From Prorocentrum cordatum (Eukaryota): 64,000 bases of DNA. The notes beneath the pieces are model-generated. The model searched no databases and had not been told where the DNA came from. It saw nothing but the letters and a program-made list of their open reading frames with translations. Both the position numbers and the translations under genes were made by a program. The stretch covers positions 372,001-436,000 of the forward strand of contig CAUYUJ010000303.1 of the NCBI GenBank assembly GCA_963575745.1, given 5' to 3'. Below are positions 1 to 31,850 of the stretch, piece by piece (the stretch's first letter is position 1; every line of letters begins with the position of its first letter).

Positions 1-1275
1 TGTTTCCTTTGGCGGCGAGGAAAGCCTAGAAGCCTTCGTGCCCGTCGGAAAGCGCCGCCTGTGCATGCTCAAGGTGGTCCGTGGTCTCAGTGCCGTGAAG
101 GGCGCCTTGAACGAAACGACAATGTTAGAGCAAGTGCTTGGGAAGCTTCGCGTCGGAGAAGGAGACAACGTGGATGAAGCGTCGACTCCTGTGAAAAACG
201 CTTCCGCAGCAGCGGGGGTTGCAGCAGGATCTCCCGCGGCAGCGGGAGAAAAAGGTCGGGATCCCATGGCGGATCTCCTCGGAACCGTGAAGGGCGCATC
301 GAAAGCGAAGCAGGTGGCGGCGCGTCGCCAACCAGAGAAAACCCTTGAGAAACAGAAAATATTGTCTCGAGGCACGCTCTGCCTCTCGCTCCGTGCGGTC
401 GTCTTGGGCGGCGTCGGGCCTCCGCTGACTGATTACATGATGCATGTATGTATATGTTGTGTATGTATGGTGTGTCGACGTATATGTATGTACATACGTA
501 TATGTGTGTATTTATATCTATATAGGTATGTATATATAACGCGGTCGCAGGGGCGTGGCCCGCGGCCCAGGGCGGGGCCCGAGACTCTGGGACAGGACAT
601 AGGGCCTCATCATCGTAGGATGCTCATCATTCTCACCATCGCCATGATGGGGGGGGAGGAGGGGACAGCTACCAGCTGCGCGCTGGCGCCACCGCCGCCC
701 CCCCGCGCCCGCTGGCGCATCCGCAGTGCGGCTGCGGGAGGGACTGCGCCTCAATTCCTGCAGAGGCGGCCTGCAGGCATGTTGCACTTGTGGCGTCTAG
801 TACAAACGCCCGAGCGGCCCGCTTTTTTTTTGGGGGGGCTCTTGCTTCACGGTGGAAGAGGAGACTATCATCATCCCCCGTGCCGCGTTCGCCTTCCCTC
901 GACGACGGCGTCGGCGACTTCCCACATTCTGGCCTTGTTTTCTGGGGAGTGTTCTCGGAGTCGTTCGGGGCGTTCGTTCGTGTGTGCATGCTTCTGAGTT
1001 TTCTGCGCGTCGTTCGGGCCGCTCGTCCTGGTGTGAGTCGTTCGGGCCCCTCCTCGCCAGCCCATCTCACAGCGGCAACCCTCGCGAAGCATGCCGACGG
1101 TCGTGTTTTTTTTTCAGGCGTGTGTCCGCTGGTCCCCGCATATCTCCCTTGTTCCTCGTTCCTCCCGCCCCCTTGTACATCCTCCTTGTGGGGGGATGCG
1201 ACCGTTTGCTTGCCCTGCAGCGCTGGGCTCGAGACCAGAGGGCGGCCGCGTGTGCGCGCGCATGGCTTCGGCATC

Positions 1276-2736
1276 ATGGCAGCCGCAGCCGCTCCGCCCC
1301 CAGACCCAGGAGACGCTCGCCCTGCAAACGCGCCTCTGCGGTTCGGGCACGACCGCGAGGCCAACGAATTTGTGGAGTTTTGGTACCAAGAAGGCAAAAA
1401 GAAAGACCCCGACAGAGTGCTCATGAACCCACGGAAACTAAAGGGGACAATATTCGGATTCGGGTACGTTATGCGCCGCAGCAGCGGCGCGGCTTGCCAT
1501 TATGACTCTGGCAGACGCATATGTAAGAATATTCATTTCTGCTCGCAGTGGCCGTGTCCCAGCGACCATCGTCTGGCGGACGGTTCTGTGGACTACAATA
1601 AGTGGTCAGACTTGCAAGCGCCCTGGCATTTAGGGCAATGCGCGGGCGGGTGGCCCGCAGGAGCGGGGGCCCCCGCAGCAGCGGAGGCGCCGGCCGAGGC
1701 GTGCGAGGTCCCTGCTGAAGCGGCAGCGGAGCCGTCGGTGGGCCCTGCTGAAGGCCCCGCAGCAGCGGGGCCGTCAGCGGAGGCGTGCGTGGCCCCTGCT
1801 GAAGTGGCAGCGGAGCCGTACGTGGGCTCTTCTGACGGCCCCGCAGCAGCGGGTGCGTCAGCGGAAGCGTGCGCGCCTCCTCCTGAAGTGGCGGCGGCAC
1901 CGTGCGCGTGCCCTTCTGCAGAGCCCGCAACAGCGGAGGCGTCCGTAGGTCCTGCTGGCGCGCATGGCGCCGACGCAATCGCCGAGGCCGCTTCCGCAGT
2001 GGAGTCTGCCCTGAAGGACTCCGCGGCAACAGCAGCTCTCTCAGCAAAGGAGGTTGCCCCTGTCGCTTTCCCCCAACCCGCCCCGCTTGCTGTTCGCGAC
2101 ATAGCGGAACCCGTGCTTCCAGGGGCGGAAGTTGCTGCAGTGACCGCCTGTGAACAGACAGCCGCGACAGCAGGCGCTGCGGTTGCCCCTGCAGGCGCCC
2201 CCGCAGCAGCGGGGGCGCCTGCAGGGGCACTTTCAGAACAAGGCCAGAGGTGCTTCGAGAAATTGATGAAGTTGTCGCGCAGTATTCGCGGAAGGCCGGG
2301 GGGAGGCCGAGAGTGGATAGGGTATTCTGCTTTCGTAATCTTTGCGCTTCTGCGGAAGGTGCGCGTCTACGTGTGGGAAGGACGCAACAGAGTCGACCTT
2401 TGCAAAGCTGTCTTGCCGCCGTGGAAACTAGAGGAGTTAACCCGCGAGCCTGCGGTGGACGCGATCGCGCGTTGCGCCGTCCCCCGAGAATCGGGGCCAC
2501 CGGACTGGGCCCCCGTGTCGGAGGAGTATCCTTTGTTTCTATGCAATCATTTTATCGCAGGCGTCTCCACCGACTTTGTGGATTTCACGGGAGATGCTTC
2601 GACGGTGGACGGTTTCTATTCGGCTCTCGGTGTGTTCGTCGTGTCCACAGTCGCAGACGGGGACTGCGGTTTGGATTGCATGTTGCGGATGACCCAGGAG
2701 GTTTCCACGCGAGAGTCTCGCAGGGAGCTCCGCCAG
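1276..2736 (+). CDS. Exon 1 of OTU-like/transposase fusion: Cys/His-rich N-terminus, Ala/Pro/Glu-rich linker, OTU-like motifs
   Basis: ATG at 1276 is in frame with ORF 790..2763. Motifs: EWIGYSAFVIFALLRKVRVYVW, CNHF, VADGDCGLDC, then RRELRQ up to the inferred donor. Confidence 0.6.
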
Positions 2737-2910
2737 GACAGTTGCTCTCTCCGACCACCCTGATCCTTCGCTTCCATCTCTGCTGCCCCCACATGCTCTC
2801 CCCCTCCTTGTCTCCCCATTTTGCCTTCATGCCTCTCCCATCGCGCCCTTCTCTCCCCTCGTGCCCTCCCCACCGAGTCTCCTTGCCCCTCCTCCATGCC
2901 CGCCCGCCAG
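2737..2910 (+). other. Putative phase-0 GA-AG intron (174 bp)
   Basis: CGCCAG|GACA occurs at both boundaries; the interior is pyrimidine-rich and holds the in-frame TGA at 2761. Removal gives RRELRQ-DIADYI, an OTU-like helix. Confidence 0.7.
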
Positions 2911-5274
2911 GACATCGCGGACTACATCGTGCAAAGGGTGCGTCTGGCGCGGTTCCTCGACGCGATGGTCCTGACACAAGAAGTCACGCAGGATGACGTC
3001 CAGGAGCTTCGTCGCCTGCAGAGCGCCTTAGACGACGAAGAACTTGTCCCGCAGCCTGGCCACGCCGCCCCTCCGAGAGCACAGGGCGTTGCCGCCGCAG
3101 CAGCGGCGGCGCCACCTGAGGACTTGGCAGTGGTGGAAGTCGACGCCGAGGCTGTCTGTCAGGAGCTCGTGCAAGCCATCCAATGGTGGACAGGACTGAC
3201 AGACGCTGCGTGCGCCCTGGACGTAGCTCGGGAGTTGATGCCCGCAGAGCGGGAGGAGCAGCTCTTGAGGTACAGGAACCGCGGCTGCGAGCGCAAAGCC
3301 CCCGCCCAGAACAAGAAGCGCGTGGTGGTCCCGTCGCTCCTGTGCTCGAGGATGGAGATAGCGGGTGCTTTCGACGAGCACATGCGCTCTTTAGGCTGGA
3401 CGCCTGGAGACCGCTTTCCGTATGGAGGGGCGCGTTCATTCATGGATGCGTGGGACTGGGGTTCCATGTCCCGTCTCCCTCTCAGGAAGCGCACGCGCGT
3501 TGTGCGGCGCTGGCACAAGGCTTTTCTGTCGTCGAAATACGCCTCCGCAGTAGCGGAGGCTGTTCGGCAGCCGCGGGGACACGAGAAGCAGCGCGGGCAG
3601 GGGCGCCTCCTGAAGTGGAAAGGGCGGAAAAGGATACCACAACAGGGACAGGGCCCAGCTCGAAAATGCCCTTGGCTGCGGCAAGCTCTGTTTGAATGGT
3701 GGAGTTCCATTCGGCACAGTGTGGATTGGAAGATGATCAAAAGTGGACTGCGAAGTACCCAAAGAGAGCCAGCGAAGATAGCAAGGTTCACGCAAAGCAT
3801 GCTCCAGACCAAAGCGTTGGAGCTCATGGGCGAGTACGTCACGCAGCAGCTGCGGATCGGGCAGCGACCCGCCGCCGTGGAGTTGAGGTCGCGCTGGTGG
3901 GCCTCCTGGCGCAAGGAATACGGCCTCAGCATGCGGTGCCCGAACAGGAAGTACAAGTGCCCGCTGCCCGTCTTGGAAGAGCGCCTCGAGCGAGGCTGGC
4001 TGAACGTGTTTAGGGTGCGCGCCGCGTGCGTGCTACTCAACGAGCAGGATCCCGAGATGGAGAACTTCGACCAGTCGCCTTTCCACCACAATGAAACAGG
4101 ATCAGCTGGCGTGAGGACCCTCGCAGTAGCGGGGGTCGAAGTGCCACTGGTGGAGTGCCACGGCGCGGTGCGGGAGCGGTGGACGGCCAATTTCATGACA
4201 ATGAGCGACAAGGATCGACTGCGGAGAGAAGGCCCCCCACCGATGGAGTGCATGTTCAAGGCGGAGGGGGGAGGAGAGAAGTTGAGGCCGCGCCTGCTCG
4301 AACACCTTCGGCGCCGAGGGTTCGGCAGATGGGTGTCGGCGACCACCAGCACCAAGGGGTCTTACCGGACACCGTGCGCGCTCGCGTACCTGGACCGCCA
4401 CCTCCCTCATCTGCCAGAGCCTCCGCAGCAGCGGGAGTGGAGAATTATGATGGCGGATGATCATAGCCCTCACTTGTCCCCGCTTGTGAGTAAGCCATGT
4501 TGGTCTCGAGGGTACGTGTTCATCCCGCACGGGGGCGGCGTAACCCCAATCCTCCAAACTGTGGACACACATCTGAATCAACACGCCAAGCGCGAGTACA
4601 TGAAGAGAGAAGGAGCCGCGCTGCTGAGAGCCATGAGGCTGGGCCAGTGCGTCCCACAGCTGGACAAGTTAGAATGCATTGACTTGATGGTGGAAGTGAT
4701 GTCCCAAATGAGTCTTCACTTGGCTGCGGCAGACGGGTACTGGGAAACTGGTTTCAAGGCAAATCTGTGGGATGCGGACTTGGACGCGCGCATATGCAAG
4801 GAGGCAGGCCATTTCTGGAGAAAGTTGGGGATGCGTGAGAAGGTCGCCGCCGCAGTAGCGGAGGTCGAAGAAGAGGTACAGGCGGGGCGCTTGAGATGGA
4901 CTTACAAAGACATCATGCGATTGGTCCTCCCGCACCCTCGACGCGGCCACTGCGACGACGTGTTCGCAAACCTTGGAGACGACACGGCTCTGGACGAGGG
5001 CGACAAGATTTGGCGTGGCATGGAGGGGGCGGAAGACGCAGCCGAGGGTCTCCGCAGCAGCGGGGGCACTGAGGGTGGCAATTCCGTCGACGCCCTCGAA
5101 GGAGATGAAGATGATGGGAGCGAGGACGACGACGGGTGGAGCGCCGCTGGCGAGTTTGACTACGAATGGGCCAATCAAAGTCTCACCGCAGCAGCGGCGG
5201 GGGAGAGCGCGCTGGAGGCACCGCCTGGCCTGTCGACGTCTCGCATGGAAACTGCGGAGCAGACGTCTGATTGA
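2911..5274 (+). CDS. Pogo-like DDE_1 (DDD) transposase, exon 2
   Basis: Catalytic-type motifs ENFDQSP, IMMADDHSPH and GGVTPILQTVDTHLN. The upstream LFEWW...WWASWRKEYGLS segment resembles a CENP-B-type HTH. Confidence 0.8.
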   Translation, partial: DIADYIVQRVRLARFLDAMVLTQEVTQDDVQELRRLQSALDDEELVPQPGHAAPPRAQGVAAAAAAAPPEDLAVVEVDAEAVCQELVQAIQWWTGLTDAACALDVARELMPAEREEQLLRYRNRGCERKAPAQNKKRVVVPSLLCSRMEIAGAFDEHMRSLGWTPGDRFPYGGARSFMDAWDWGSMSRLPLRKRTRVVRRWHKAFLSSKYASAVAEAVRQPRGHEKQRGQGRLLKWKGRKRIPQQGQGPARKCPWLRQALFEWWSSIRHSVDWKMIKSGLRSTQREPAKIARFTQSMLQTKALELMGEYVTQQLRIGQRPAAVELRSRWWASWRKEYGLSMRCPNRKYKCPLPVLEERLERGWLNVFRVRAACVLLNEQDPEMENFDQSPFHHNETGSAGVRTLAVAGVEVPLVECHGAVRERWTANFMTMSDKDRLRREGPPPMECMFKAEGGGEKLRPRLLEHLRRRGFGRWVSATTSTKGSYRTPCALAYLDRHLPHLPEPPQQREWRIMMADDHSPHLSPLVSKPCWSRGYVFIPHGGGVTPILQTVDTHLNQHAKREYMKREGAALLRAMRLGQCVPQLDKLECIDLMVEVMSQMSLHLAAADGYWETGFKANLWDADLDARICKEAGHFWRKLGMREKVAAAVAEVEEEVQAGRLRWTYKDIMRLVLPHPRRGHCDDVFANLGDDTALDEGDKIWRGMEGAEDAAEGLRSSGGTEGGNSVDALEGDEDDGSEDDDGWSAAGEFDYEWANQSLTAAAAGESALEAPPGLSTSRMETAEQTSD

Positions 5275-5949
5275 TGAGAACGTATTCGTCGATCGCTGAG
5301 GAGTTGCGCAGCTGGGGCGACATCGCGGGGGCCACGTTCATGGAGACGCAATTACGGAAAGAACGGAGGCGAGTGCGTGAAGTGTCGAAGGAAGATCCTG
5401 GGGTTCAGCGGGCCCTCGCAGCATACGAGGACGCCCGCGAGGCGACGCTCAGAAACGAGAAACGACAGCGGGATGTCGAGGCGCGGCGCAGAGAAGAGCT
5501 AACCCGCCTGGGGGACGACGTAAAGAAAGCGCGCAAGCTGCTGAGGACACAGCAAGCCAAACTCTTAGACGCAGAGGCAGCCATAGATATCAAACACAGG
5601 ATGAAGCATGTCGGGTTATCCGAGCTGGGCGCGGGCCTTCGCAGCTGCGGAGGCGCGGCGGGTCGAACGTCGAGGTACGACGCGCTGAATCGCCTTGCGA
5701 TTTTGGGTTCTGGGCTTTCTGCAGCTCAGCGGTCAGATTTTGATTGGTTTCGGCGGGAATGGGACGCCGCTGGCATGGAGGACTTCGGTGGAAAGTGGCC
5801 GGAGACGTTTGCCACATGGTTGCAGGAACGTCATAGACGAGTACTTGGGGGGCAACCCGAGAGCTTTCAGCATGTTTGTGCACAGTGAGACGCGACGCCG
5901 TCTGTCTGGCTCCCTGGCGCTTGCGCCCCCTGCAGCTGGGGGCCTCTGA
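5271..5949 (+). pseudogene. Frameshifted coiled-coil C-terminal continuation of the transposase gene
   Basis: ORF 5271..5888 overlaps the transposase stop; protein-like sequence (FATWLQ / NVIDEYLGGNPRAF) continues in another frame to 5949. Confidence 0.45.
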
Positions 5950-6235
5950 GAGGCGCGGCCCGCCGCAGCAGCGGCGAGGCGCGGGGTGTGAGTTCGGGCA
6001 GCAGCCACTGCTCTTCCACCTGCCTGCGACTGAGGTGCCGCGTGCGCGCGCGGACGTAGCGCAGGCCTTGCGCAGAAGAAACAGGGAGGAGGGGGGACGG
6101 GGGAGGAGGTGAGAGGAGGGGGAGAGCAGGCAGGGGGAGAAAACCACGCGGGTGTCGATCACTCCGCCCCTCCTCCTGCTCTCCCCCCTCCTTCTCCCTG
6201 ATCTCTCCTGGTCATTATATCATTCCTCTCTCTAT

Positions 6236-6458
<223 letters not shown>

Positions 6459-6585
6459 CGCCCTTTCCTTCCCTATCCGCCCCGTCTTCCTCCTCTTCGC
6501 CCCGTCCCCCTCCTTCCACCGCCGTTTCGGCCCCAGGAGTTCGGCTCTGACGGCCGCCCCCCCTGCAACGCGGGGGCAGGGAGCG

Positions 6586-8654
6586 ATGGCCGCGGCCACC
6601 AGCAGCAGCAGCAGCCCATTGGGCCCCGCAGCAGCGGGGCCTCGGGGCCGACTGACGGCAGTGTTCACAGCGAAATCTGGGAAGGTTTGGCGACCTGTGG
6701 GTGGTCAGGCAGAACCCTGGAAGGGTCCTTGGGCCCTTGTGCCAGAGGGCGCCCCCGCAGCAGCGGGGGCTGCGCTGCCTGGCGTTTCAAGCTCAGCAGC
6801 GGCGGCGCGATCAGAAGTTTCTACGATACGCGCCCGCCCAGGCGACTCCGTGGTGGATCCGAGCGATGACGAAGAGCCTCAGGAATTTAGGGGCTGCAGG
6901 CCGCCCGACGACGTCGAACGGCGCGAATGCGTTCTTCGCGACACCGTCCCGCCAAAGTTCTTCTGCGAACGAAGAGCGGCTGACGTGAACATGCCACGGA
7001 ACGACAACGTGGGCAACCTTTCCGTCCTGTTCGGGAACTGGGGCCCCATGCCGAGCGAGACCAACCACGCGGACCAGCGGCGGAGACTTGAGTTGCAGCT
7101 GCGGCATTGCCCTGCTCTCGTGGCGTGCTTTGCGGAATGTGAGGAGCAGATGGAGTCAATCCTACAGCGGCCAGGGAGACCACCGCCGCTGCAGGCGGAC
7201 GCCCCCGCAGCAGCGGGGGCGTCAGCAGCGGAGGGCCAAAGCAGCAGCAGCGGTGGGCCTTTTGTCGCCCCCGCAGCAGCGATGGCGACAGCAAGAGGAA
7301 GTCGTGCTGCGAGTGTTGGCGATTGCCAACAGCTCCAGAATCGACCAGAGTACGAATACTTGACCCTGCGCGGGCGTGAGGACAAGTCCTTGTGCATCGC
7401 TGCGCGCGCAAATCTGTGTTACGAAATGCGGCTGCTCCACTGGGAAAGGAGCGTCGACGGCCACTACAAAACAGCAAGAGGGCGCAAGATGGAAGCGTTC
7501 TCGAGGATCATGGTGGTTGAGATCTACTTCGATCAAACCTACGCCCACTTCGGCTCGACAGTGCGGGTGTGCGCGGTGCACCTCCACCGCGACACGGCGA
7601 AAATTCCAGAGGCTTCAACGAGGCTCACAAGACGTGGTGGCCGAGGTTGGCGACCATCTTGCAGGACAACAGCGTTGACATCCTTTGTGGGGATTTCAAC
7701 ATGGCGCTCACACAGACGCTGCCGAGTCTTCGGGGTCTAGGCATGCGATTGGAGACGGCAGCAGCGTACTTCTGGCGCGGATTGGACGGCACTCCGTGCT
7801 TGGGCAGCTGCTGCATCTTCGTTCTCAACAGGCCTGGCGAGTACACCCTGTGCTGGCCGCTGGGCGCCGTGCACGGCAGGGACGAGGCGGGGTTGCTCTT
7901 CGCACGCAAGTCGGTGATCGGTGAGATCGGGTACCGTAACAGAAGCAAGGCAGAGGCCCCCGCAGCAGCGGGGGCCTCCACCAGCCCATCATCGCAGCCG
8001 ACGTGCTGGCACCACAGCCAGAACGGAGGCCCTGGGATGCCTTACTCTTGCTACGACCCGAAAAAAGACGCCCGCGAGCACCTCCAGGATTTACTGACCC
8101 AGTCAGAGGAATGCCAACGCAAGATCCAAGAGACGGGGCGTGAGAAACTGAGGCGCGCCGAGGCTGAGGCTAGAGGGGGCCACCGCTTCTCTAGCAATCG
8201 CGAGGTGACCCTCTTCCGCGCGTTGCAGAAGACGTTCCCGCCAGAGACCGTGGAGGTGGAGGGGCGCTGGCACGGCGGCGCCCACTACCCTCTCTTGCTC
8301 CAAATGCGCATGGCCAGCGTGCGCTCGCAGGGGAGGAAGCAGGAGAGAGCCAAAGAGAAGAAGGACAGGCGCGCCCAGAAACAGCTGGCAGCTGCGCTCA
8401 GGGCGCCGCTGCCGCCCGAGCAGCACGGACCCGAGCGCCAGGCGCCAGAGCAGCACAGCGAGAGGGACGAGCAAGACGAGCGCGCCCAACAGGCGTGGCG
8501 CACGCCAAGATGGGCAGACGAAAGCGCGGACGACGGCCGCGACAGGCCCGCGGCTGGCGATGGAAGGTCGCGGCGGGGGGTTGAAAGGGGGAGGGAGGGA
8601 GAGGGAGGGTGGAGCACGGGGAGGGCAGGAGGGAGGAGAGGGAATGAGGAATAG
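6586..8654 (+). pseudogene. EEP (endonuclease/exonuclease/phosphatase, APE-like) protein with one frameshift near 7600
   Basis: Ordered motifs LSVLFGNWG, CFAECE, VCAVHLH (ORF 6586) and VDILCGDFNM, GGAHYPL (ORF 7569). The frames join across the A-run in GCGAAAATTCC. Confidence 0.65.
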
Positions 8655-9510
8655 GCTGAGCAGGACGAGGGATGACACAAGGAAGTGAGTGTCGGAAAGG
8701 GGCGGGAGTTGACAGGGAGGGGATACTTATAGAAATAATTACTTATCACCCCCAAGGTGGCAGCCGACCCCGCAGTGCCCATCTCCAGGGCAGGGCTGGA
8801 GCAGCGAGGGCAGCGCGGCGCCGCCAGCTACATCTCGGACGCGATCGCTGCCCTCGGCCACGAGCCGCCAGAGCTCCCGCAGCAGCGGAGGCCACAGACG
8901 CCACGGCAGCAACCAACAGACGGGGAGTGGCGCAGGGATGAGTGGTGGCGCACCAAGGAGGGCGAGGAGCGCGAGTGGCAACAGCCGAGCGGCGAGGCTT
9001 CTCGCTGCAGGACCGCATGGTCGACTCCGCCTGGCGCGACATGCAAGTTGCATTCGGCAGCGACCAACGCCCCAGTGACTGGTGGAGCAGCCACAGTGGG
9101 TGGAGTAGCGGCCAGGGGCACTGGGAGGCCACGACCACGACATCTTGGAGGTGGGTCGAACACCCCCCCGAGACCAATCCCTGGGAAGAACTTAGCTGAA
9201 CCATCGCACAGGAGCCGCCCCTCCGCAGCAGCGGATGGAGGCCTCATCGGCCGAACGTCGACCCTCCGCAGCAGCGGAGGCCTTGCCAATGCATCGTGAG
9301 CGGCGGCGACTCGCGCGCGCCGTCGTGCTCGGCGACCGCTGCCCGAGCGGAAAAGGAAAAAGAAACGGTGCTTTCATCGGCGTTGTCGTTGCCTCCTCTC
9401 CTTCATCGTTTTCTTCTCCCTCCCCCTCCAATCCCCCATCCCGCTATCACATTTTATTGTCTCCAATCGTATCGGGAGCTCCCGTGGCAGAAGAGCACCC
9501 GGAACGAGGT

Positions 9511-9595
9511 CCTCCGTGACAGAGGGGGGGCATCTTAGACCCCCTCTGTGACAGAGGGGGGGCATATTTGACCCCCTCTGTGACAGAGGGGGGGC
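9511..9595. repeat. Three palindromic units (CCCCTCTGT-G-ACAGAGGGG), period ~32 bp
   Basis: Visible directly; the first copy is degenerate. Confidence 0.9.
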
Positions 9596-9921
9596 CAAAA
9601 CACAAATGATCACTTTAATGCGGCTTCTGGATTACCTGCACGGCGGCCACGTAAATACCTTGGCAGGTCCTCATGGCGTATAGGCAAGCAGTTTCGAGTT
9701 ATAAAGTGGTGAAAGCCGCCAGGAGTGACCCAGGCTTCTCACGCAGACGAGCTGATTGAACTGCCCCCAGAGCTCGATTCGATTCGATTCCTCCCTACCT
9801 CCACCGTCTCCCACTCTCGCCTCCCTGCGCCCAGCCTCCTTCGTACCCTCCTTCCCTGCCCCAGTCGCACGCCATGAGCGAGAGGAGGGGGGAGTAACAG
9901 ACAGGGGACGGGACGAGGACG

Positions 9922-10321
9922 GATGATGATGATGATGATGATGATTATTATTCATTATGATGATGATGATGATGATGCTGGTGATGATGATGATTATGAT
10001 GATGATGATGATGATGCTGATGCTGATGATGATGATGGTGGTGGTGATGATGATGACGATGAAGATGATGATGGCGATGATGATGATCATGATGATGATC
10101 ATGATGATGATGGTGATGATGATGATGCTGATGATGATGCTGTTGATGACGATGACGATGACGATGATGTTGATGATGATGATGATGATGATGAGGAGGG
10201 GGATGCGGAGGACGATGAGGATGAGGAGGAGGAGGAGGAAAAGGAGGAAAAGGAGGAAACGAATGAAAAGGAGGAGGATGAGGAGGAGGAGGAAGAGGAG
10301 GATGAGGCGGAGGAGGAGGAG
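9922..10321. repeat. (GAT)n followed by (GAG)n microsatellite
   Basis: Visible directly in the sequence. Confidence 0.95.
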
Positions 10322-12685
10322 TGTTCGGGAATGTTCGGCGACGACGAAGTCGAGGATCGCACGACGAGCGAGCGATGGCGCCACATGGGCCCCGAGGCCT
10401 CCCGCGGCCTAGTGTGGCGGTTCCTTGCCCTGCTTCATACACGATAAAACATATTTCCCATTCTTAGTGGGTTCCTGGCATTTATCAAAAAGGCCCTTGA
10501 TACTACCCCCGTCAGTACCTTTGGTACGACGGCCACATCTAGTGCACCACCAGAGGCTAAATTTCTCAGTGAATTGCATGATGTGGGTGGGGTGAATGGT
10601 TATTGCACCTACGCGGATGGCTGTGCCTCTCTTCCGTTTGGACGAGGCTATGCTACATTCTTTAAGCCAGTGTTTAATTACAGCTCCTCCAGCGTTCCTA
10701 CTGACTTGTTCGTTACACTTGCTACACTGCCATCTACATCGCGAGCGAACGAGGAGGTGGGGGCTAGACTCGAGGACGGCTCTCAACTCAGTCCTGGCTT
10801 GTTTACGTTGCTGTCTTGTTTTATACTTTTCTGGGATCATGGCCTGGCTGTCGCTCTCGCACGCGTCGAGGTGCGCACGGATCAAGCGTCGCCAGACCAA
10901 GCACTGAATAGCATGTACCCAGTTGTAGCATTGCATCTGTGCCCCTGGGATGTCGTGCTCGGAGGCGGCGTCGGACGCCAGCTCGTCGGCCAGCAATTTT
11001 CCCAACCATGCCTCGGCACTGACCTGTTTCTTGACCGCCTCCTCCGCGTCCATGTGGCTCGTGATGTGTCGCAGCCCGATATCCTTGGCTGGGTTCATCT
11101 CGGCAGGAGCTCTTACACACAGTGCGAAATACACAGGGTCCCAGATGTCGGCATTCCTCCTGCGATGACCATGTCGAAGGTGTAGCTCTTTCTGCCATCC
11201 GTGGGTTGTAACGTCTGAATCAGCATAAATTGTGAGCGGTCCCGTTGTCGACCTGATCGCTTGTAGCACCGCCCACAACTCCGCTCGATTGTTGGTCTGG
11301 CGCCGTCCAGGTAGTGGTCCATGTTGTGCTGCTCGGATCTTCCATTCTTCTTGGTAGTGGAGGCATACCCATGACCATCCGCATCTGCGATATCTGCGGT
11401 CGCTCGATTGGGATCCACCACTACCGTCCGTTGAAATAACTGTGGGGCCTGTGATCGTGTGGATCGTGTCGACGTTCTCAATCTCGCCGATGTTGGTCGG
11501 GTTGTTCTCGGTGGTGCACTCTGGGGGAATCGTCCATTATTTCGGGCATAGACCACGGAGCCAAAAACAGGGCACCACCTTTGCTCCCTCAGCAGCTCGA
11601 TCCTTGAGTGTGTCTGATACTGAATAGTCTTTATGGTCCTGCCGCTGTGTGCAATTCCCCCATATGCGATGGTAGTCGTCTGCAACTTCCCCACACGAGC
11701 ATTTATCTTCAGCTTCTTCTCCAAAACATGCTCGTCTCCTAGCTGGTGTCCACATGGCTGCGCACGCTGCTGTCTGCAATACTCCAGCCTCTCGATGTTT
11801 GTCTCGGCGACGCATCTGAAGAACACGTTTACGCAGATCCGTGGTATCGATTCCCTTTTCCATGCCTTGACCGAGCCAGTGCCGAGAAGCTTTGTCCCAG
11901 AATACTGCTTGCTGGCTCTGGAGAACTGCGTGGATAACGTCCGTAGGATCTTTAGTGTGCGCGTGCTCGTCATCTCCCATTTGCCATTCATTGCCTTCAG
12001 GATCCAGCCAAAGGACGGGCGACAAGGGATCCCAGTTAACTTGCCATAACGAAAGTATGAGACTGCCGATCATTCCACGTCCTAGCCTCCATCGGTCTTG
12101 TGGCGTCTTACTCGCAAGGTTGCGGTAGATGGTACCCCAAGCACGGCAAGCTCCCTCGTGAAGGTCTGGTCTGTGGCACCACGTGTCGAACCATGTGTTG
12201 AGCTGTCCCTTCAAGATGCTGACAGCTGGGTCAGCTTGCTCAAGGTCAAGGTATGTTTGAAGACACCTTCCAAACCAGTGCTTGCCAATAGCCTTTGCTG
12301 CTGATCTGCGGAGTTGTGTCGTGGCTGTCGGTGGTTCGCCATAGATCTTGGTGCCATACAAGAACGAGGCGGTCGGGCCTTGCACCACAAGGATTCGTCC
12401 GCGGTGCCGATGTAACCTGCGTAGCTTGGTCCTGATCTTCCTCATCCTATCGGTGGCTGTCTTCACTCGCTTGGTGTGCGTGGGTCGCGTTCTTGCAACA
12501 GTGCCAGCACGATCGATTCCAAGGTCTCTTCCAGATGCGGCTGGTTTAACCGCACCTCCCTGTCGTCTGATCTCGTATGCGATATCGTGCGTCATCTGCT
12601 CGTTAGTAGTGATGATAACCGATTTGTCTTCCATCTCTAAGCCTTGCTCGGCTAAGCACTTGCTGTACTCGACCGTGGCGTTGAT
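10322..12685 (-). mobile_element. 5'-truncated non-LTR retrotransposon A (RT C-terminus/thumb, CCHC-like, RNase H, C-terminal Cys motifs), decayed
   Basis: ORF 11537..12784 has RDLGID, FLYG and CSCG..DDYHRIWGNC. ORF 10409..11278 has RNase H-like TIYADS, RNADIWD, HITSH, LADELA and CxxC motifs. Confidence 0.8.
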
Positions 12686-22285: not shown

Positions 22286-25200
22286 TCGGGAGGGTCAGAG
22301 GACGAAACAGGGGGTGGAGGGAGGGGCCCCGCGCAGCTCCTTCCTCCGAGGACCGCCCTAGTGATCAGGGCCGCCTTGGCCATCCATGGGCCTCTTGAGG
22401 CTCTGACGGGGGCCAAGGGGCGGGCTCCGCGGGACCTCCTCAGGGCTGGATTGGGACTCAGAGGCCTGAGGTGCGGAGGGGCGGTGAACTGTGCAAACCT
22501 CTAGTACCATTCTCCTACGTCCTGAGGCTGTACGCGCGAAGCGCTGACAGAATTTACAGTTCCATCCTCCAGCCAGCGTGGGCCTGAGTTCGTGCAGGCG
22601 CTGGCTCTGTGCCAGAACTGGTCGCTGGCGTTCGGGCCGACGGGGATGCTGCCGTCGACGCCTCGGCCTGCGCGCTGGCGGCGGCTGGCGGTCCAGGTTG
22701 CCAACCAACGTCATCGAAAACCCGATCCAGCACACCATCTGTCTCACAATGTTCAGCATGTTCGCGCGCAGGTGAATGGCCTCCGACGGCAACGCGTGCA
22801 TGGCCAACCCCCGCTTCGCCGCAATATCCGCGTAGTCATTGTCCTTCTTGTCGAGCGTGGCCTCGCCCTGGGTCTGGTGCGAGCGTACGTGTGAGACCTG
22901 CAGCTGCGAAGACAGTCCTCCATGATCGTGAATGGCCTGCCATATCATTATCCACAAGTCACAGTTCTGCCTGCGCGGATGCATGCACCATTCGGGCCCG
23001 CACATGAGACCTTCCATTGTGCCAGGGCAGTCCGTTCGAATATGCAACGGCAACCTCCCATGTCGTAACACTTGTATTACCGCGTATAGCTCAGCACGTG
23101 AAACTGATTGTTGATGTCCAGGGAGCGGCCCGTAGGCTATCCCCCGTAGGGCCTGACCCGTCATCATCGCTATGCCCCATCTTGCTTTGTTGGCTTTGGC
23201 CATGCGATGGGAGAGAGTCCTGAGCCGTCCGCGTAGATGTCGCCCGTCAGCTTGGTCAGGTCTCCTCCGTGGGCAAATCTCCAGGAATTCTCCATGCATG
23301 GCGACGGTATGACTGGCAAAGCGTCTCTGGGCATCAAGCCCCTGGTGAACAAGAGCTCGTTGTGAGATGAGGCCCGCGTTGCCTGGATGATGTCAGCGCC
23401 CACTGCGGCCTCGCGCTCCTGCTGGAGCAGGGGGCAGCTCCACAGCCGGTGATGTGTAGTGCCAGGGTAGTCCATGCAGTGCTGACACAGGCCATCGGTA
23501 GCATATCCATGTTTGTGAAGTCGAGCCTGAGACCACTGCCCTCCGATGATGGAGGTCCGCAGCGCGGCTCGAGCCTGCTCCGACAAGTTCCACTTCTTGG
23601 CCAGCTCCTTGGGGGCCAACAGCATCTTGAGTGGGCCCATCCAGTAACCGCATGGTCGCCTGACTGATGGTACATCTTCTGGTGCATGATCCTTCTGCCT
23701 GCTCCAGCCCTCGAACTTCACATTCACGAAATCCCGTCGCGCGAGCGTGCGGATCCATTCAGGGCTGTCTGTGGCGAGGTCTAAGTTAACGACCGGGCAC
23801 GTAGTCCATGCTGTCGCCGTCGTCGCTCGCCAGCTGAGAGAGTGAAGTGCCGCCAACACTGCTCCTGCTGGGCCTGCCACATCTGCATGCTTCGGGTTAA
23901 GTCCGAGCTTCTGGCGCTGCTGCGAAAAAGCTTTCATCCAGCACTGAGTTGGGAACCTTGTCATCCTGCACGAGCATGGCCCATGTGTAGAAAAGGTCCC
24001 ACCGTGGCCATCATCTCTGGGTGCTCAAAGAATCGTGGTTCGAGCTGCGCCGCGAGCCAGACTGAGGTGCCAGGAGGGGTGCGCCTCCAGCCCACGCGCA
24101 CCATGTTGACCATCGGCTTGATCAGTGTCTTGGTAGGGCCGACTATCTGAATGCCGTAATGCATGGCTGAGGCAATACACGGTTGCGCAACTGCACGGCT
24201 TATCTTGGCCAAGCCGTTGAGCTTCTTGAAGCGTGGGAGCCTCTTCTTCATCTTGAGCACCCTCTTGCGCATGGTGGCAAAGCTCAGCTTGTGTCCGCAT
24301 TTGGCCTCCATGCCTAAAACCTCCAGCGCCTTGTAGGGGCGGAAACCATGTCGATGCACTTGTGCTGTGACCTCCTGCGCTATGACAAAGTCAGAAGCCA
24401 ACACCTTCGCCTTGTCCTGAGCAGTGGGCAGGTCTAAGGCTCTGAGGACAGCTGCGAGCCTCCGCAAGATGCGCACTGTCTGATGTACGATGTCCTGCTG
24501 GGAAGCCACAACCTGCAACGTAATGGCGTCTGCGTATATGTCCAGGGAGTGGTGGACCTGAACTGTGTTGGCAAATGGCATCTCGAAAATGTCGAATGGC
24601 CGCATCATGATCACTTGCAGCAGGTACATGGCGATCGAGCACCCTGGTAGCACCCCATTGCTGACCTGGCACGGGTAGGAGAAAGAAGTGGCCCACTTGA
24701 TGCGCCTCGGGGCGTAGTACATCGCTAGGCATAGCTGCAGAATCTGTGAGGGAAATCCAAAGTGGTCTGCTGCCTGCAGTACCCGTCGCCAGCAAACTCG
24801 ATCGAAACACTTACTGATGTCCACCAGCGTCGTAGTTGTAGTTTTTTGCTTGTCTTGTGCATAATCCTCTGCATATATCATGGTGCGCGCGCCCACATCT
24901 AGCGTACATTTGTGGGCGCCCAGCGCATAATAAGGCATGGTATTTTCAGCAGTCCATTGCCGAACCTGCCCCAACCTGAACTTCGTATAGATGCGGTAAG
25001 CTGCAGGAAGGAGATCAATTGGCCGATACCCTCCTTGAGGTTTAGCAAGTAACATGATGTGCACATCGAGCATGGGAGTCGGCCACCGCATCCATGCTTC
25101 CGCAGTCCAGTATATGTATATCAGCATCGCTAGGGCCTCGTCTGAGATCAAAGAGAAGGCTCATGGTGGTAATGCGTCGGCTCCGAGGCCTGTGCGCCAT

Positions 25201-31114: not shown

Positions 31115-31850
31115 GTCGTATCTGACCCGGGACTTCCCCGGGACTCCCCCGGGACCCCCCCCGGGACCCCCTCTCCCTCCCCCGGCGGGGAAGGGAAAGG
31201 GAAGGGGCTTCCCTTCGACTCAATTACGACGTTGCTCAAGGTCGGTACGGGGGGGGGCCGTCGTGTCTGACCTGGGGGGGGGTCGCTACCGCCCCCCGCT
31301 ACCCCCCCCTCCCCTCCCGGCGGGGGAGGGATCAAAGGGAAGGGGCTTCCCTTCGACTCAATTACGAGGTTGCTCAAGGTCGGCTTGGCTGGAGCCCAGG
31401 GGAAGAGGAGTCCCAGGGGGGGGCGTCGTATCTGACCCGGGGGGGGGGTCGCTACCCCCCCCCCCTCCCGGCGGGGGAGGGATCAAAGGGAAGGGGCTTC
31501 CCTTCGACTCAATTACGAGGTTGCTCAAGGTCGGCTTGGCTGGAGCCCAGGGGAAGAGGAGTCCCAGGGGGGGGCGTCGTATCTGACCCGGGGGGGGGGT
31601 CGCTACCCCCCCCCCCCCTCCCGGCGGGGGAGGGATCAAAGGGAAGGGGCTTCCCTTCGACTCAATTACGAGGTTGCTCAAGGTCGGCTTGGCTGGAGCC
31701 CAGGGGAAGAGGAGTCCCAGGGGGGGGCGTCGTATCTGACCCGGGGGGGAGGGGGGGAGGGATCAAAGGGAAGGGGCTTCCCTTCGACTCAATTACGAGG
31801 TTGCTCAAGGTCGGCTTGGCTGGAGCCCAGGGGAAGAGGAGTCCCAGGGA
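31115..31850. repeat. ~150-bp tandem repeat, about 5 copies, with variable G/C homopolymers
   Basis: Recurring AAAGGGAAGGGGCTTCCCTTCGACTCAATTACGAGGTTGCTCAAGGTCGG. Confidence 0.92.

Follow-up and report, generated by a model that had tools for sequence, protein, structure and literature searches.

Strand-specific hairpins with lineage-specific loops overlie the genes of a transposon-like element of Prorocentrum cordatum and of related elements

Introduction

Why would the genes of a mobile element be studded, on one strand only, with copies of the same small hairpin? The question is raised by a 64,000-nucleotide stretch of Prorocentrum cordatum DNA (contig CAUYUJ010000303.1, positions 372,001 to 436,000), hereafter the window. 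Its first 9.6 kb are, as predicted from sequence, part of a multi-copy, multi-gene DNA-transposon-like element. An initial annotation of this DNA described about 20 dispersed, strand-polarised hairpins of the form CCGC-AG(C/T)A-GCGG inside coding sequence and proposed that they are a signal at the level of the nucleic acid, such as a REP-like protein-binding, self-marking or RNA-structure site. Here the hairpins are followed through the window and through 80 related loci. They form a family-wide, strand-specific structural element under selection, whose apical sequence differs by lineage and which is found preferentially just behind stop codons.

A polar hairpin motif in the window

The motif CCGCAG[CT]AGCGG (CCGCAGYAGCGG, the exact motif counted) has 20 exact sites in the window. 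Every one is on the + strand, and they span 204-9277; dinucleotide shuffles (n=100) average 0.03 and never exceed 1. The number and the polarity given by the initial annotation are thereby borne out. Restriction of the motif to the element was judged against 54 kb of flank, where the exact count is 0. The looser core CGCAGYAGCG is found 22 times on the + strand within 205-9276 and three times, always on the - strand, in the other 54 kb. Variant sites lie at 235 (loop GGCA), 1926 (AACA), 5640 (AGCT) and 7272 (3-bp stem). The site list drawn up at the outset matches ours for the most part; its coordinates mark stem starts, a site at 1476 was missed, and the copy near 4117 is TCGCAGTAGCGG, with TCGC in place of CCGC, which is not the exact motif.

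The window sites are read as PAAAG-type (18 sites), RSSG-type (5) and PQQR-type (2) peptides, and the site at 5964 falls outside the listed open reading frames (ORFs); the initial annotation was right about the three frames and about copies outside called genes. Codons were permuted inside each ORF, leaving protein and codon usage unchanged, and hairpins with a GC-closed AGYA loop and at least five perfect pairs were counted. Six window ORFs hold 12 such hairpins, with 0 on the - strand, against summed means of ~0.4 in the synonymous shuffles, so that Ala/Pro/Gly codon usage fails as an explanation. Eleven ORFs of three relatives (L061, L063 and L048) hold 44, against shuffle means of 0.04-0.34 per ORF.

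Stems extended outward from the core have 3 to 21 pairs, and at least 8 pairs (G.T counted) are formed at 13 of 24 sites within 205-9267. The longer hairpins fold as RNA with -18 to -55 kcal/mol (z -2.9 to -8.8 against shuffles), and the perfect 21-bp stem reported at 2184-2229, which is indeed there, reaches -55.2 kcal/mol (z -8.8). Pairing was tested on an ungapped alignment of the 24 window sites over a 12-pair helix. Paired cells amount to 76.4%, against 68.1 +/- 1.7 with shuffled partners, where 0 of 500 trials come up to the observed value, and 39-56% when partners are slid. Covariation scores 0.285 against 0.144 in shuffles, of which 0 of 500 reach 0.285, and the stem pairs 5-8 counted from the loop show 3-5 pair types each; the stems covary, as had been claimed. 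Pairing in the window reaches background past ~8 bp. The idea that hairpins arrive as insertions was ruled out at 2184-2229, where an imperfect version stands at the same place in relatives.

Related loci share the hairpin and change its loop

A scan with an alignment of gene T, the transposase gene of the element, yielded 80 metagenome-contig loci with 33-77% protein identity, some of them nearly identical. Almost every locus has hairpins of this kind on its coding strand, with a density of 2-6 per kb and ~3 per kb overall. When only orientation-unambiguous loops are taken, CGC-RGYN-GCG is found 954 times forward and 14 times in reverse over the window element and the 80 loci.

The loops sort by lineage. 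Counts of CGC-N4-GCG on the + strand, not deduplicated, give AGTC 364, AGTT 206, GGTG 123, AGTG 93, AGTA 54 and AGCA 47. The window and its close relatives L001, L002 and L018 have AGCA or AGTA. Other lineages are almost pure for AGTC, AGTT, AGTG or GGTG, and some have mixed AGTN loops. The lineage tree was built with FastTree on one domain and midpoint-rooted, 5 of the 80 loci with too short a core match being left out. For pairing, frame and mismatch counts, sites were deduplicated by exact 34-mers, which left 823 distinct sites. Among them, the two positions beyond the CCGC/GCGG core are paired in 49% and 39% of cases, against 26% with shuffled partners, and show no base preference; family-wide, pairing is at background past ~6 bp.

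The clade L041/L053/L054/L060 has another form, a variable stem beneath a constant C-AGCTGTNGC-G top (AGCUGUNGC when AGCTGTNGC is written as RNA), found 80 times forward and 0 times in reverse. Its stem positions 2-5 hold all four bases and are paired in 78-88% of 67 distinct sites, against ~30% with shuffled partners. A class of "hairpin-less" relatives was considered and rejected, the L041 clade having its own polar hairpin. The outlying clade without the common tag (L074, L075/L072) carries other polar palindromes, CCCACG-AA-CGTGGG in L074 (5 copies) and CCCTC-GGAT-GAGGG in L075. Locus L077 has two AGTC hairpins reversed within gene T. No opposite-strand gene, which would show if hairpins flip with the gene, was found within any element; the 14 reversed sites include the 2 of L077.

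Sites are held in place and the loop base is fixed

Hairpins stand at the same aligned places in the window and in 81%-identical relatives, with compensatory changes. The arms are GCCGCCGC/GCGGCGGC at 3096 against GCCACCGC/GCGGTGGC in a relative, and GGCCCCGC/GCGGGGCC at 1758 against GCCCCCGC/GCGGGGGT. An alignment of the transposase core from 75 loci has single protein columns with a hairpin in up to 42 loci, with loops that differ by lineage, and at two aligned places the common hairpin is replaced by the L041-type form.

Among the distinct sites, 686 of 823 lie inside ORFs and 137 outside. The three ORF phases are used 456/157/73 times and read as x-A-V-A-x, R-S-(R/C/S)-G and P-Q-(L/S)-R. 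Changes of the fourth loop base are synonymous in the A-V-A frame, yet this base is fixed against the local codon preference. In the window all 3 loop codons are GTA, a codon that makes up 4% of the 128 other Val codons. The loop codon is GTC in 13 of 13 cases in L027 (27% elsewhere) and in 17 of 17 in L029 (34% elsewhere), GTT in 8 of 8 in L015 (20% elsewhere), and GTG in 9 of 9 in L063 (42% elsewhere). The sites are held in place by selection, and the loop is replaced in concert between lineages. Shuffles, frames, polarity, covariation, compensatory changes and the loop base all support the early suggestion of a nucleic-acid-level signal overlaid on coding sequence.

The sense strand folds and hairpins follow stop codons

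Among internal single mismatches with a pair on either side, 44 are G.T and 14 are A.C (control G.T share 0.54, p = 8e-4). Since a G.T mismatch on one strand is tolerated and its A.C counterpart is not, the sense strand is the one that folds.

Hairpin density is 2.77 per kb in coding and 2.48 per kb in non-coding sequence. Non-coding 100-nt windows of less than 40% G+C, which are the TAATTA-bearing spacers described below, have 1 match in 74, and G+C-rich non-coding windows have 2.8-6.7 per kb. Spacing has a mean of 310, a median of 266 and a coefficient of variation of 0.83; it is near random, with no periodicity. Position relative to genes is far from even: at 46 ORF ends judged genuine, a hairpin lies at most 60 nt after the stop codon in 30 cases and at most 60 nt before it in 5. 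These post-stop hairpins often come two or three in a row and directly abut TGA in many lineages; in many AGTC lineages TGA is immediately followed by CCGCAGTCGCGG. The distribution leans towards RNA, and the excess of G.T over A.C together with the post-stop placement favours a structure read on the sense strand, probably as RNA.

The AT-rich spacers between co-oriented genes have a box of their own, TAATTA (often TTAATTAA), with 395 occurrences outside ORFs (6.3 per kb) and 34 inside (0.11 per kb). It is 57 times denser outside ORFs, is present in 52 of 76 loci, and occurs once in the window element, at 8736, in the gap that separates gene E from the open frame after it. The box may act as a promoter or as a 3'-end signal.

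Genes and features of the element

Table 1. Features of the element in the window (positions are those of the window).
Feature	Position	Strand	Remarks
Mobile element	1..9635 (end approximate)	+	Starts before base 1; all genes and hairpins on + strand
Upstream ORF tail	2..445	+	Weakly like gene U of relatives
Hairpin GCTTCCGC-AGCA-GCGGGGGT	200..219	+	8 pairs, 3 of them G.T; in upstream ORF tail
Hairpin TCTCCCGC-GGCA-GCGGGAGA	230..249	+	8 pairs, variant loop; in upstream ORF tail
Gene T	1276..5949	+	OTU-like motif DGDCG (by eye), DDE_1/pogo-like transposase core, helical C-terminal part
Hairpin TGCGCCGC-AGCA-GCGGCGCG	1472..1491	+	8 pairs; kept in L001 and L018
Hairpin core CCGC-AGCA-GCGG	1673..1684	+	In first of three 84-nt tandem units
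Hairpin GGCCCCGC-AGCA-GCGGGGCC	1753..1772	+	8 pairs, -27.1 kcal/mol; L018 has GCCCCCGC/GCGGGGGT
Hairpin CCCGC-AGCA-GCGGG	1840..1853	+	
Degenerate copy CCGC-AACA-GCGG	1925..1936	+	
Perfect 21-bp hairpin, AGCA loop	2184..2229	+	Imperfect counterpart in relatives
Hairpin TGCCGCCGC-AGCA-GCGGCGGCG	3090..3111	+	L001 has GCCACCGC/GCGGTGGC, compensatory G-C to A-T
Hairpin GCCTCCGC-AGTA-GCGGAGGC	3541..3560	+	Encodes ASAVAE
Gene T transposase core	3658..4920	+	Residues 280-700 of P0001
Hairpin GACCCTCGC-AGTA-GCGGGGGTC	4116..4137	+	Over conserved peptide TLAVAG; rare Val codon GTA
Hairpin TCCGC-AGCA-GCGGG	4422..4435	+	PQQR frame; L001 version is a perfect 7 bp
Hairpin core CCGC-AGTA-GCGG	4850..4861	+	AAVAE; place common to 21 loci
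Hairpin GTCTCCGC-AGCA-GCGGGGGC	5048..5067	+	RSSG frame
Hairpin core CCGC-AGCA-GCGG	5186..5197	+	
Hairpin CGCCGC-AGCA-GCGGCG	5961..5976	+	11 nt past stop codon 5947-5949 of intact copy P0003
Gene E	6586..8654	+	Predicted EEP-fold nuclease/phosphodiesterase; frameshift near 7599 in window copy
Hairpin GGGCCCCGC-AGCA-GCGGGGCCT	6621..6642	+	
Hairpin GCCCCCGC-AGCA-GCGGGGGC	6751..6770	+	
Hairpin GACGCCCCCGC-AGCA-GCGGGGGCGTC	7198..7223	+	11 bp, -29.6 kcal/mol
Degenerate copy CGC-AGCA-GCG	7272..7281	+	
Hairpin GAGGCCCCCGC-AGCA-GCGGGGGCCTC	7953..7978	+	11 bp
Doubtful open frame (either a fourth gene or 3' untranslated sequence)	8757..9299	+	Three hairpins
Hairpin core CCGC-AGCA-GCGG	8877..8888	+	C at 8875 elsewhere turns an outer-stem T.G into C-G
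Hairpin TCCGC-AGCA-GCGGA	9222..9235	+	G at 9236 in other copies gives a perfect 8-bp stem
Hairpin CCTCCGC-AGCA-GCGGAGG	9263..9280	+	Last one, ~355 nt short of element end
Three subterminal palindromes CCCCCTCTGT-G-ACAGAGGGGG	9516..9600	+	Last 120 bases of element; different repeat kind

The features are listed in Table 1. A comparison with contigs of four public runs, which covered 6450-9900, found many diverged pieces on 6450-9697 (1597 in run X2, in likeness classes of 849, 555 and 193). Contig cover is ~0 beyond 9697, and loose ends at 9634 and 9636 enter discordant sequence, with an agreement of 0.54-0.62. The loci L001, L002 and L018 are 77-81% identical to the window over 1267-6345. Differences between the window and other copies over 6450-9700 (runs X1, X2, X3 and X8) are mostly a G in the window and an A in the others, at 19-23 places per run and 12 in X8; the next commonest is window C and others T, at 10-12 places per run and 5 in X8.

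The upstream ORF tail gives a tblastn match to L015 232-522 (30% identity, 106 aa, E 5e-6), and L015:1-990 is a member of the gene U cluster. Gene U occurs at 15 loci and a further gene, X, at 2. The structure model of gene U has a mean predicted local distance difference test score (pLDDT) of 64.7 and a best structural Z of 5.7, and no fold was assigned; gene X (L048 1463-4051) has Atlas scores below 0.9 and no family. Genes U, T and E are common to clades with different hairpin forms.

Gene T presumably starts at 1276. The window copy is broken at three points: a stop within the segment 2737-2910, a frame change near 5272 and another before 5888. The protein P0003 (1017 aa), 98% identical to the gene T product, reads through 5272, and in P0007 (1220 aa, 61% identical) the OTU-like and transposase parts are joined in one protein; the comparison with these two identifies three window ORFs as pieces of one long protein. 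A total of 105 gene T homologues were found, and a search of a viral contig collection gave no relative of the gene. In the core, three acidic residues, D417, D546 and D582, do not vary among 21 sequences, the last two standing ~35 apart as in pogo/Tigger transposases; they are presumably catalytic. The nearest ESM Atlas clusters of the core are DDE_1 (0.96, 212/256 features), and the ten best family-bearing Atlas matches belong to one family or clan. Pfam gives no DDE_1 match for the core at E <= 0.1. With cutoffs of 0.1 or 0.05 it assigns no family to 7 ORFs of the window or to 13 from L048, L061 and L063, and it has no match for gene U or gene E; PDB sequence profiles give nothing significant for genes T, U and E.

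The N-terminal part of gene T has three to four 84-nt units at 1671-1930 with one hairpin each (1673, 1757, 1841 and the degenerate 1926), indicating that unit duplication is one route to more hairpins. Further on, a pyrimidine-rich, hairpin-free segment of 174 nt (2737-2910) lies between ...LRQ and DIADY... and is flanked on both sides by CGCCAG|GACA (GA...AG). P0007 has no counterpart of it, and L001, L002 and L018 conserve it far more poorly than the sequence on either side; it probably represents either an insert specific to the lineage or an intron of non-canonical type. The stretch that separates gene T from gene E has a long inverted repeat at 6081-6201, which sets a ~50-bp purine-rich arm opposite a pyrimidine-rich arm and is followed by a long (CT)n microsatellite at 6240-6460.

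Gene E is syntenic with ORFs 3' of gene T in L044, L048, L061, L034, L036 and L063. Other copies have an extra A after 7599. An AlphaFold2 model of the L048 orthologue has a core pLDDT of ~90, and Foldseek against the PDB matches it to Tdp2 (4gyz, E 8.9e-8, template modelling score by target 0.55), to the EEP protein 3mpr, to Nocturnin and to CNOT6L, with 106 matches at E <= 0.001. By this model, gene E is predicted to have the endonuclease/exonuclease/phosphatase (EEP) fold. The open frame 8757..9299 has a translation of low complexity and no homologue among the relative loci. The window copy of the element is decayed, with frame changes near 5272 and 7599, and other copies carry better stems at 8875 and 9236. 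The palindromes of the 3' end may be subterminal binding sites; no tag hairpin is found in that part, 9516-9600.

Other features of the window

Just past the 3' end of the element, 9920-10330 is a long imperfect (GAT)n/(GAG)n tract. The window as a whole looks eukaryotic and carries long microsatellites, a retroelement at 22-25 kb with reverse transcriptase and RNase H, a C2H2 protein and a GT17 enzyme. The retroelement ORFs at 22358-25151 on the - strand (RNase H, E 3e-8; reverse transcriptase, E 2e-16) belong to an unrelated element without tag hairpins. At 31200-31800, a ~150-bp tandem repeat with GAAGGG-GCTT-CCCTTC hairpins and G10T/AC10 palindromes is likewise unrelated to the tag.

Proposed role and alternatives

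We privilege the hypothesis, about as likely to prove right as wrong, that the hairpins are RNA-level, protein-read tags on the transcripts of the element. Each has a four-base loop on a short, G+C-rich stem whose CCGC/GCGG top is conserved and whose base-paired extension is free in sequence, and together they could offer many-fold binding sites on element transcripts to one sequence-specific factor. This putative factor would recognise the loop and the stem top, and could be encoded by the element (gene U and gene X are candidates) or by the host. Post-stop sites, which ribosomes would not unwind, may serve 3'-end formation or the protection and stability of the mRNA. Sites inside genes would label the entire transcript as belonging to the element, for export, for protection from decay or silencing, or for assembly with element proteins. 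A more tentative extension, drawn by analogy with virus packaging signals, is that the family barcodes its transcripts: copies of one small hairpin would stand in every gene and 3' untranslated region, an element protein would read the loop, loop and reader would co-evolve, and each lineage would recognise only its own RNA. This would amount to self-recognition in a DDE-type mobile element and might betray an RNA or particle stage.

Several observations weigh against tags on RNA. A bulk wobble test at stem positions 5-6 shows no G.T excess, and the excess seen at single mismatches is compatible with folded RNA and single-stranded DNA alike. The motif's own G+C content could be partly behind its avoidance of AT-rich spacers. 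Of the 24 listed runs that carry window sequence, none is RNA. No nucleic-acid-binding fold was found in the element proteins by Pfam, by PDB sequence profiles or in the gene U structure (best Z 5.7), and we know of no need for a cut-and-paste DDE transposon to mark its own RNA.

The same facts could be met by hairpins that act on sense single-stranded DNA during replication, transposition or transcription, read by the transposase, the EEP nuclease or a primase-like factor. Strict polarity and the preference for G.T over A.C suit a folded DNA strand equally well, the element encodes two proteins that look like DNA enzymes, hairpins are as dense in non-coding as in coding sequence where this is G+C-rich, and attC sites, IS200/IS605 ends and single-strand origins are all read on one strand. 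Those signals, however, sit at element ends or cassette borders, whereas here there is one site per 310 nt on average and none in the terminal 355 nt; the 60-nt post-stop preference (30 vs 5) tracks genes and not element ends, and HUH, Rep and primase domains were not found in Pfam scans of window and relative ORFs. We hold this explanation unlikely. A palindrome CCGC-N4-GCGG could also be a double-stranded site for a dimeric DNA-binding protein, transposase or transcription factor, the core being a conserved inverted repeat. Binding by a symmetric dimer would give an asymmetric spacer no reason to keep one orientation (954 vs 14), and this, with the folding of the sense strand, argues against such a site. 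Moreover, the outer stem positions pair up without favouring any base, the stems accept G.T but not A.C, and the L041 clade conserves the unpaired top and leaves the paired arms free. The duplex site is disfavoured and very improbable.

Two further explanations make the hairpins something other than a signal of the element's own. They could be handles for a host pathway, either RNase III-type cleavage at AGNN-like tetraloops or sources of small RNAs, which the element tolerates or exploits to limit its dosage. Most loops (AGCA, AGTN) are of the AGNN class read by yeast Rnt1p, but the GGTG and AGCTGTNGC lineages are not, and the typical 5-8 bp stems are shorter than Rnt1p cutting requires. The post-stop sites also resemble the RNase III-cleaved, transcript-ending hairpins of Mimiviridae (PMC4402537). 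Harmful sites would vanish, yet compensatory change keeps these, and lineage-wise switching of the loop would demand a different host reader each time, which makes a host pathway quite unlikely. Finally, hairpins without function, left behind by Ala/Pro/Gly-rich coding, CAG-type repeats and template switching that makes palindromes, would be in line with the P/A-AAA-G encoded by most window sites, with the three sites within 84-nt tandem units, and with a 21-bp stem that looks like a perfected quasi-palindrome. This last explanation is largely refuted, and hardly credible any more, in view of the synonymous shuffles, the three frames and non-coding sites, the non-CAG loops in relatives, the synonymous loop base set against codon bias, the conserved places with compensatory change, and the post-stop position rule. 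The remaining weight goes to explanations that we have not thought of.

If transcript tagging holds true, a widespread mobile family of aquatic eukaryotes writes a second, structural code through its coding sequence, with a hairpin per ~300 bases, and has kept this code for long periods with "dialect" switching between lineages. We know of no earlier case of a DDE-type transposon marking itself over its full length on one strand. The question then becomes what reads the mark, a dark-matter protein of the element that binds RNA or single-stranded DNA, or one supplied by the host, and what use a cut-and-paste element has for it. The motif is a sharp marker for these elements and their derivatives in protist genomes, and synonymous sites in the element genes are not neutral. 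Should the reader be identified, it and the hairpin would also form a compact, orthogonal pair for tagging RNA.

Comparison with known systems

We found no description of such hairpins in open-access papers or bioRxiv. Rfam gives 61 matches at E <= 1, none near the gathering score; they are generic hairpin or microRNA models on 6081-6201 or on the longest stems.

Of the roles suggested by the initial annotation, the REP-like one finds no support. Repetitive extragenic palindromic sequences (REP), with their mosaic elements (BIME) and REP-associated tyrosine transposases (RAYT), are likewise numerous, short and imperfectly palindromic, and a cognate protein is believed to bind the part of them that is conserved. 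They lie between the genes of bacteria and are associated with an HUH (Y1) transposase, whereas the present hairpins are eukaryotic, mostly intragenic (686/823) and belong to one element. Pfam scans of window and relative ORFs gave no HUH (Y1, TnpA_REP) transposase, the transposase present being DDE_1-like; because no HUH-type gene was found, a REP/RAYT relationship is unsupported. Polar dispersed DNA words, such as Chi, the FtsK-orienting polar sequences (KOPS) and the DNA uptake sequences with their "dialects", share the short strand-polarised motif, the many copies and the lineage-specific variants; they are bacterial and chromosome-wide and are not known to have base-paired covarying arms.

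Among RNA signals, the histone mRNA 3' stem-loop is bound by SLBP and present in one copy per mRNA. It resembles the element hairpins in its ~6 bp stem, its four-base loop, its position a few to tens of bases past the stop codon and its sequence-specific protein reader; it differs in sequence, and the element has tens of hairpins with a loop that changes by lineage. The yeast RNase III Rnt1p recognises hairpins with an AGNN tetraloop and cleaves ~14-16 bp from the loop. Its substrates share the A-G-N-N loop on a G+C stem with the AGCA and AGTN lineages. The element stems are mostly too short for it, with only the stem at 2184-2229 longer; the GGTG (123 sites) and AGCTGTNGC lineages depart from AGNN, and conservation argues that the sites benefit the element.

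The hairpins of Mimiviridae are AT-rich, of free sequence and known from intergenic positions only, whereas those of the element are G+C-rich, have a fixed loop and lie in four cases out of five inside ORFs. No RNase III or poly(A) polymerase gene was recognised in the element. Transcript-ending hairpins of Mimiviridae are cleaved by an RNase III before polyadenylation (PMC4402537), and the likeness lies in a palindromic hairpin directly after the coding sequence and in AT-rich spacers that separate genes of one orientation.

Dispersed packaging signals, as in the single-stranded RNA viruses MS2, satellite tobacco necrosis virus (STNV) and parechovirus and in the hepatitis B virus (HBV) pregenome (for the concept, PMC6281560), are one-strand stem-loops spread across genes, with a common lineage-specific loop motif and free stems, as in the element. 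Here the carrier is multi-copy genomic DNA with a DDE-type transposase, known from DNA alone; no capsid-like family or fold and no polymerase gene were recognised among the element proteins. The packaging signals are the closest working likeness for these hairpins, and by its recognised genes the element that carries them appears to belong neither with those viruses nor with the Mimiviridae group.

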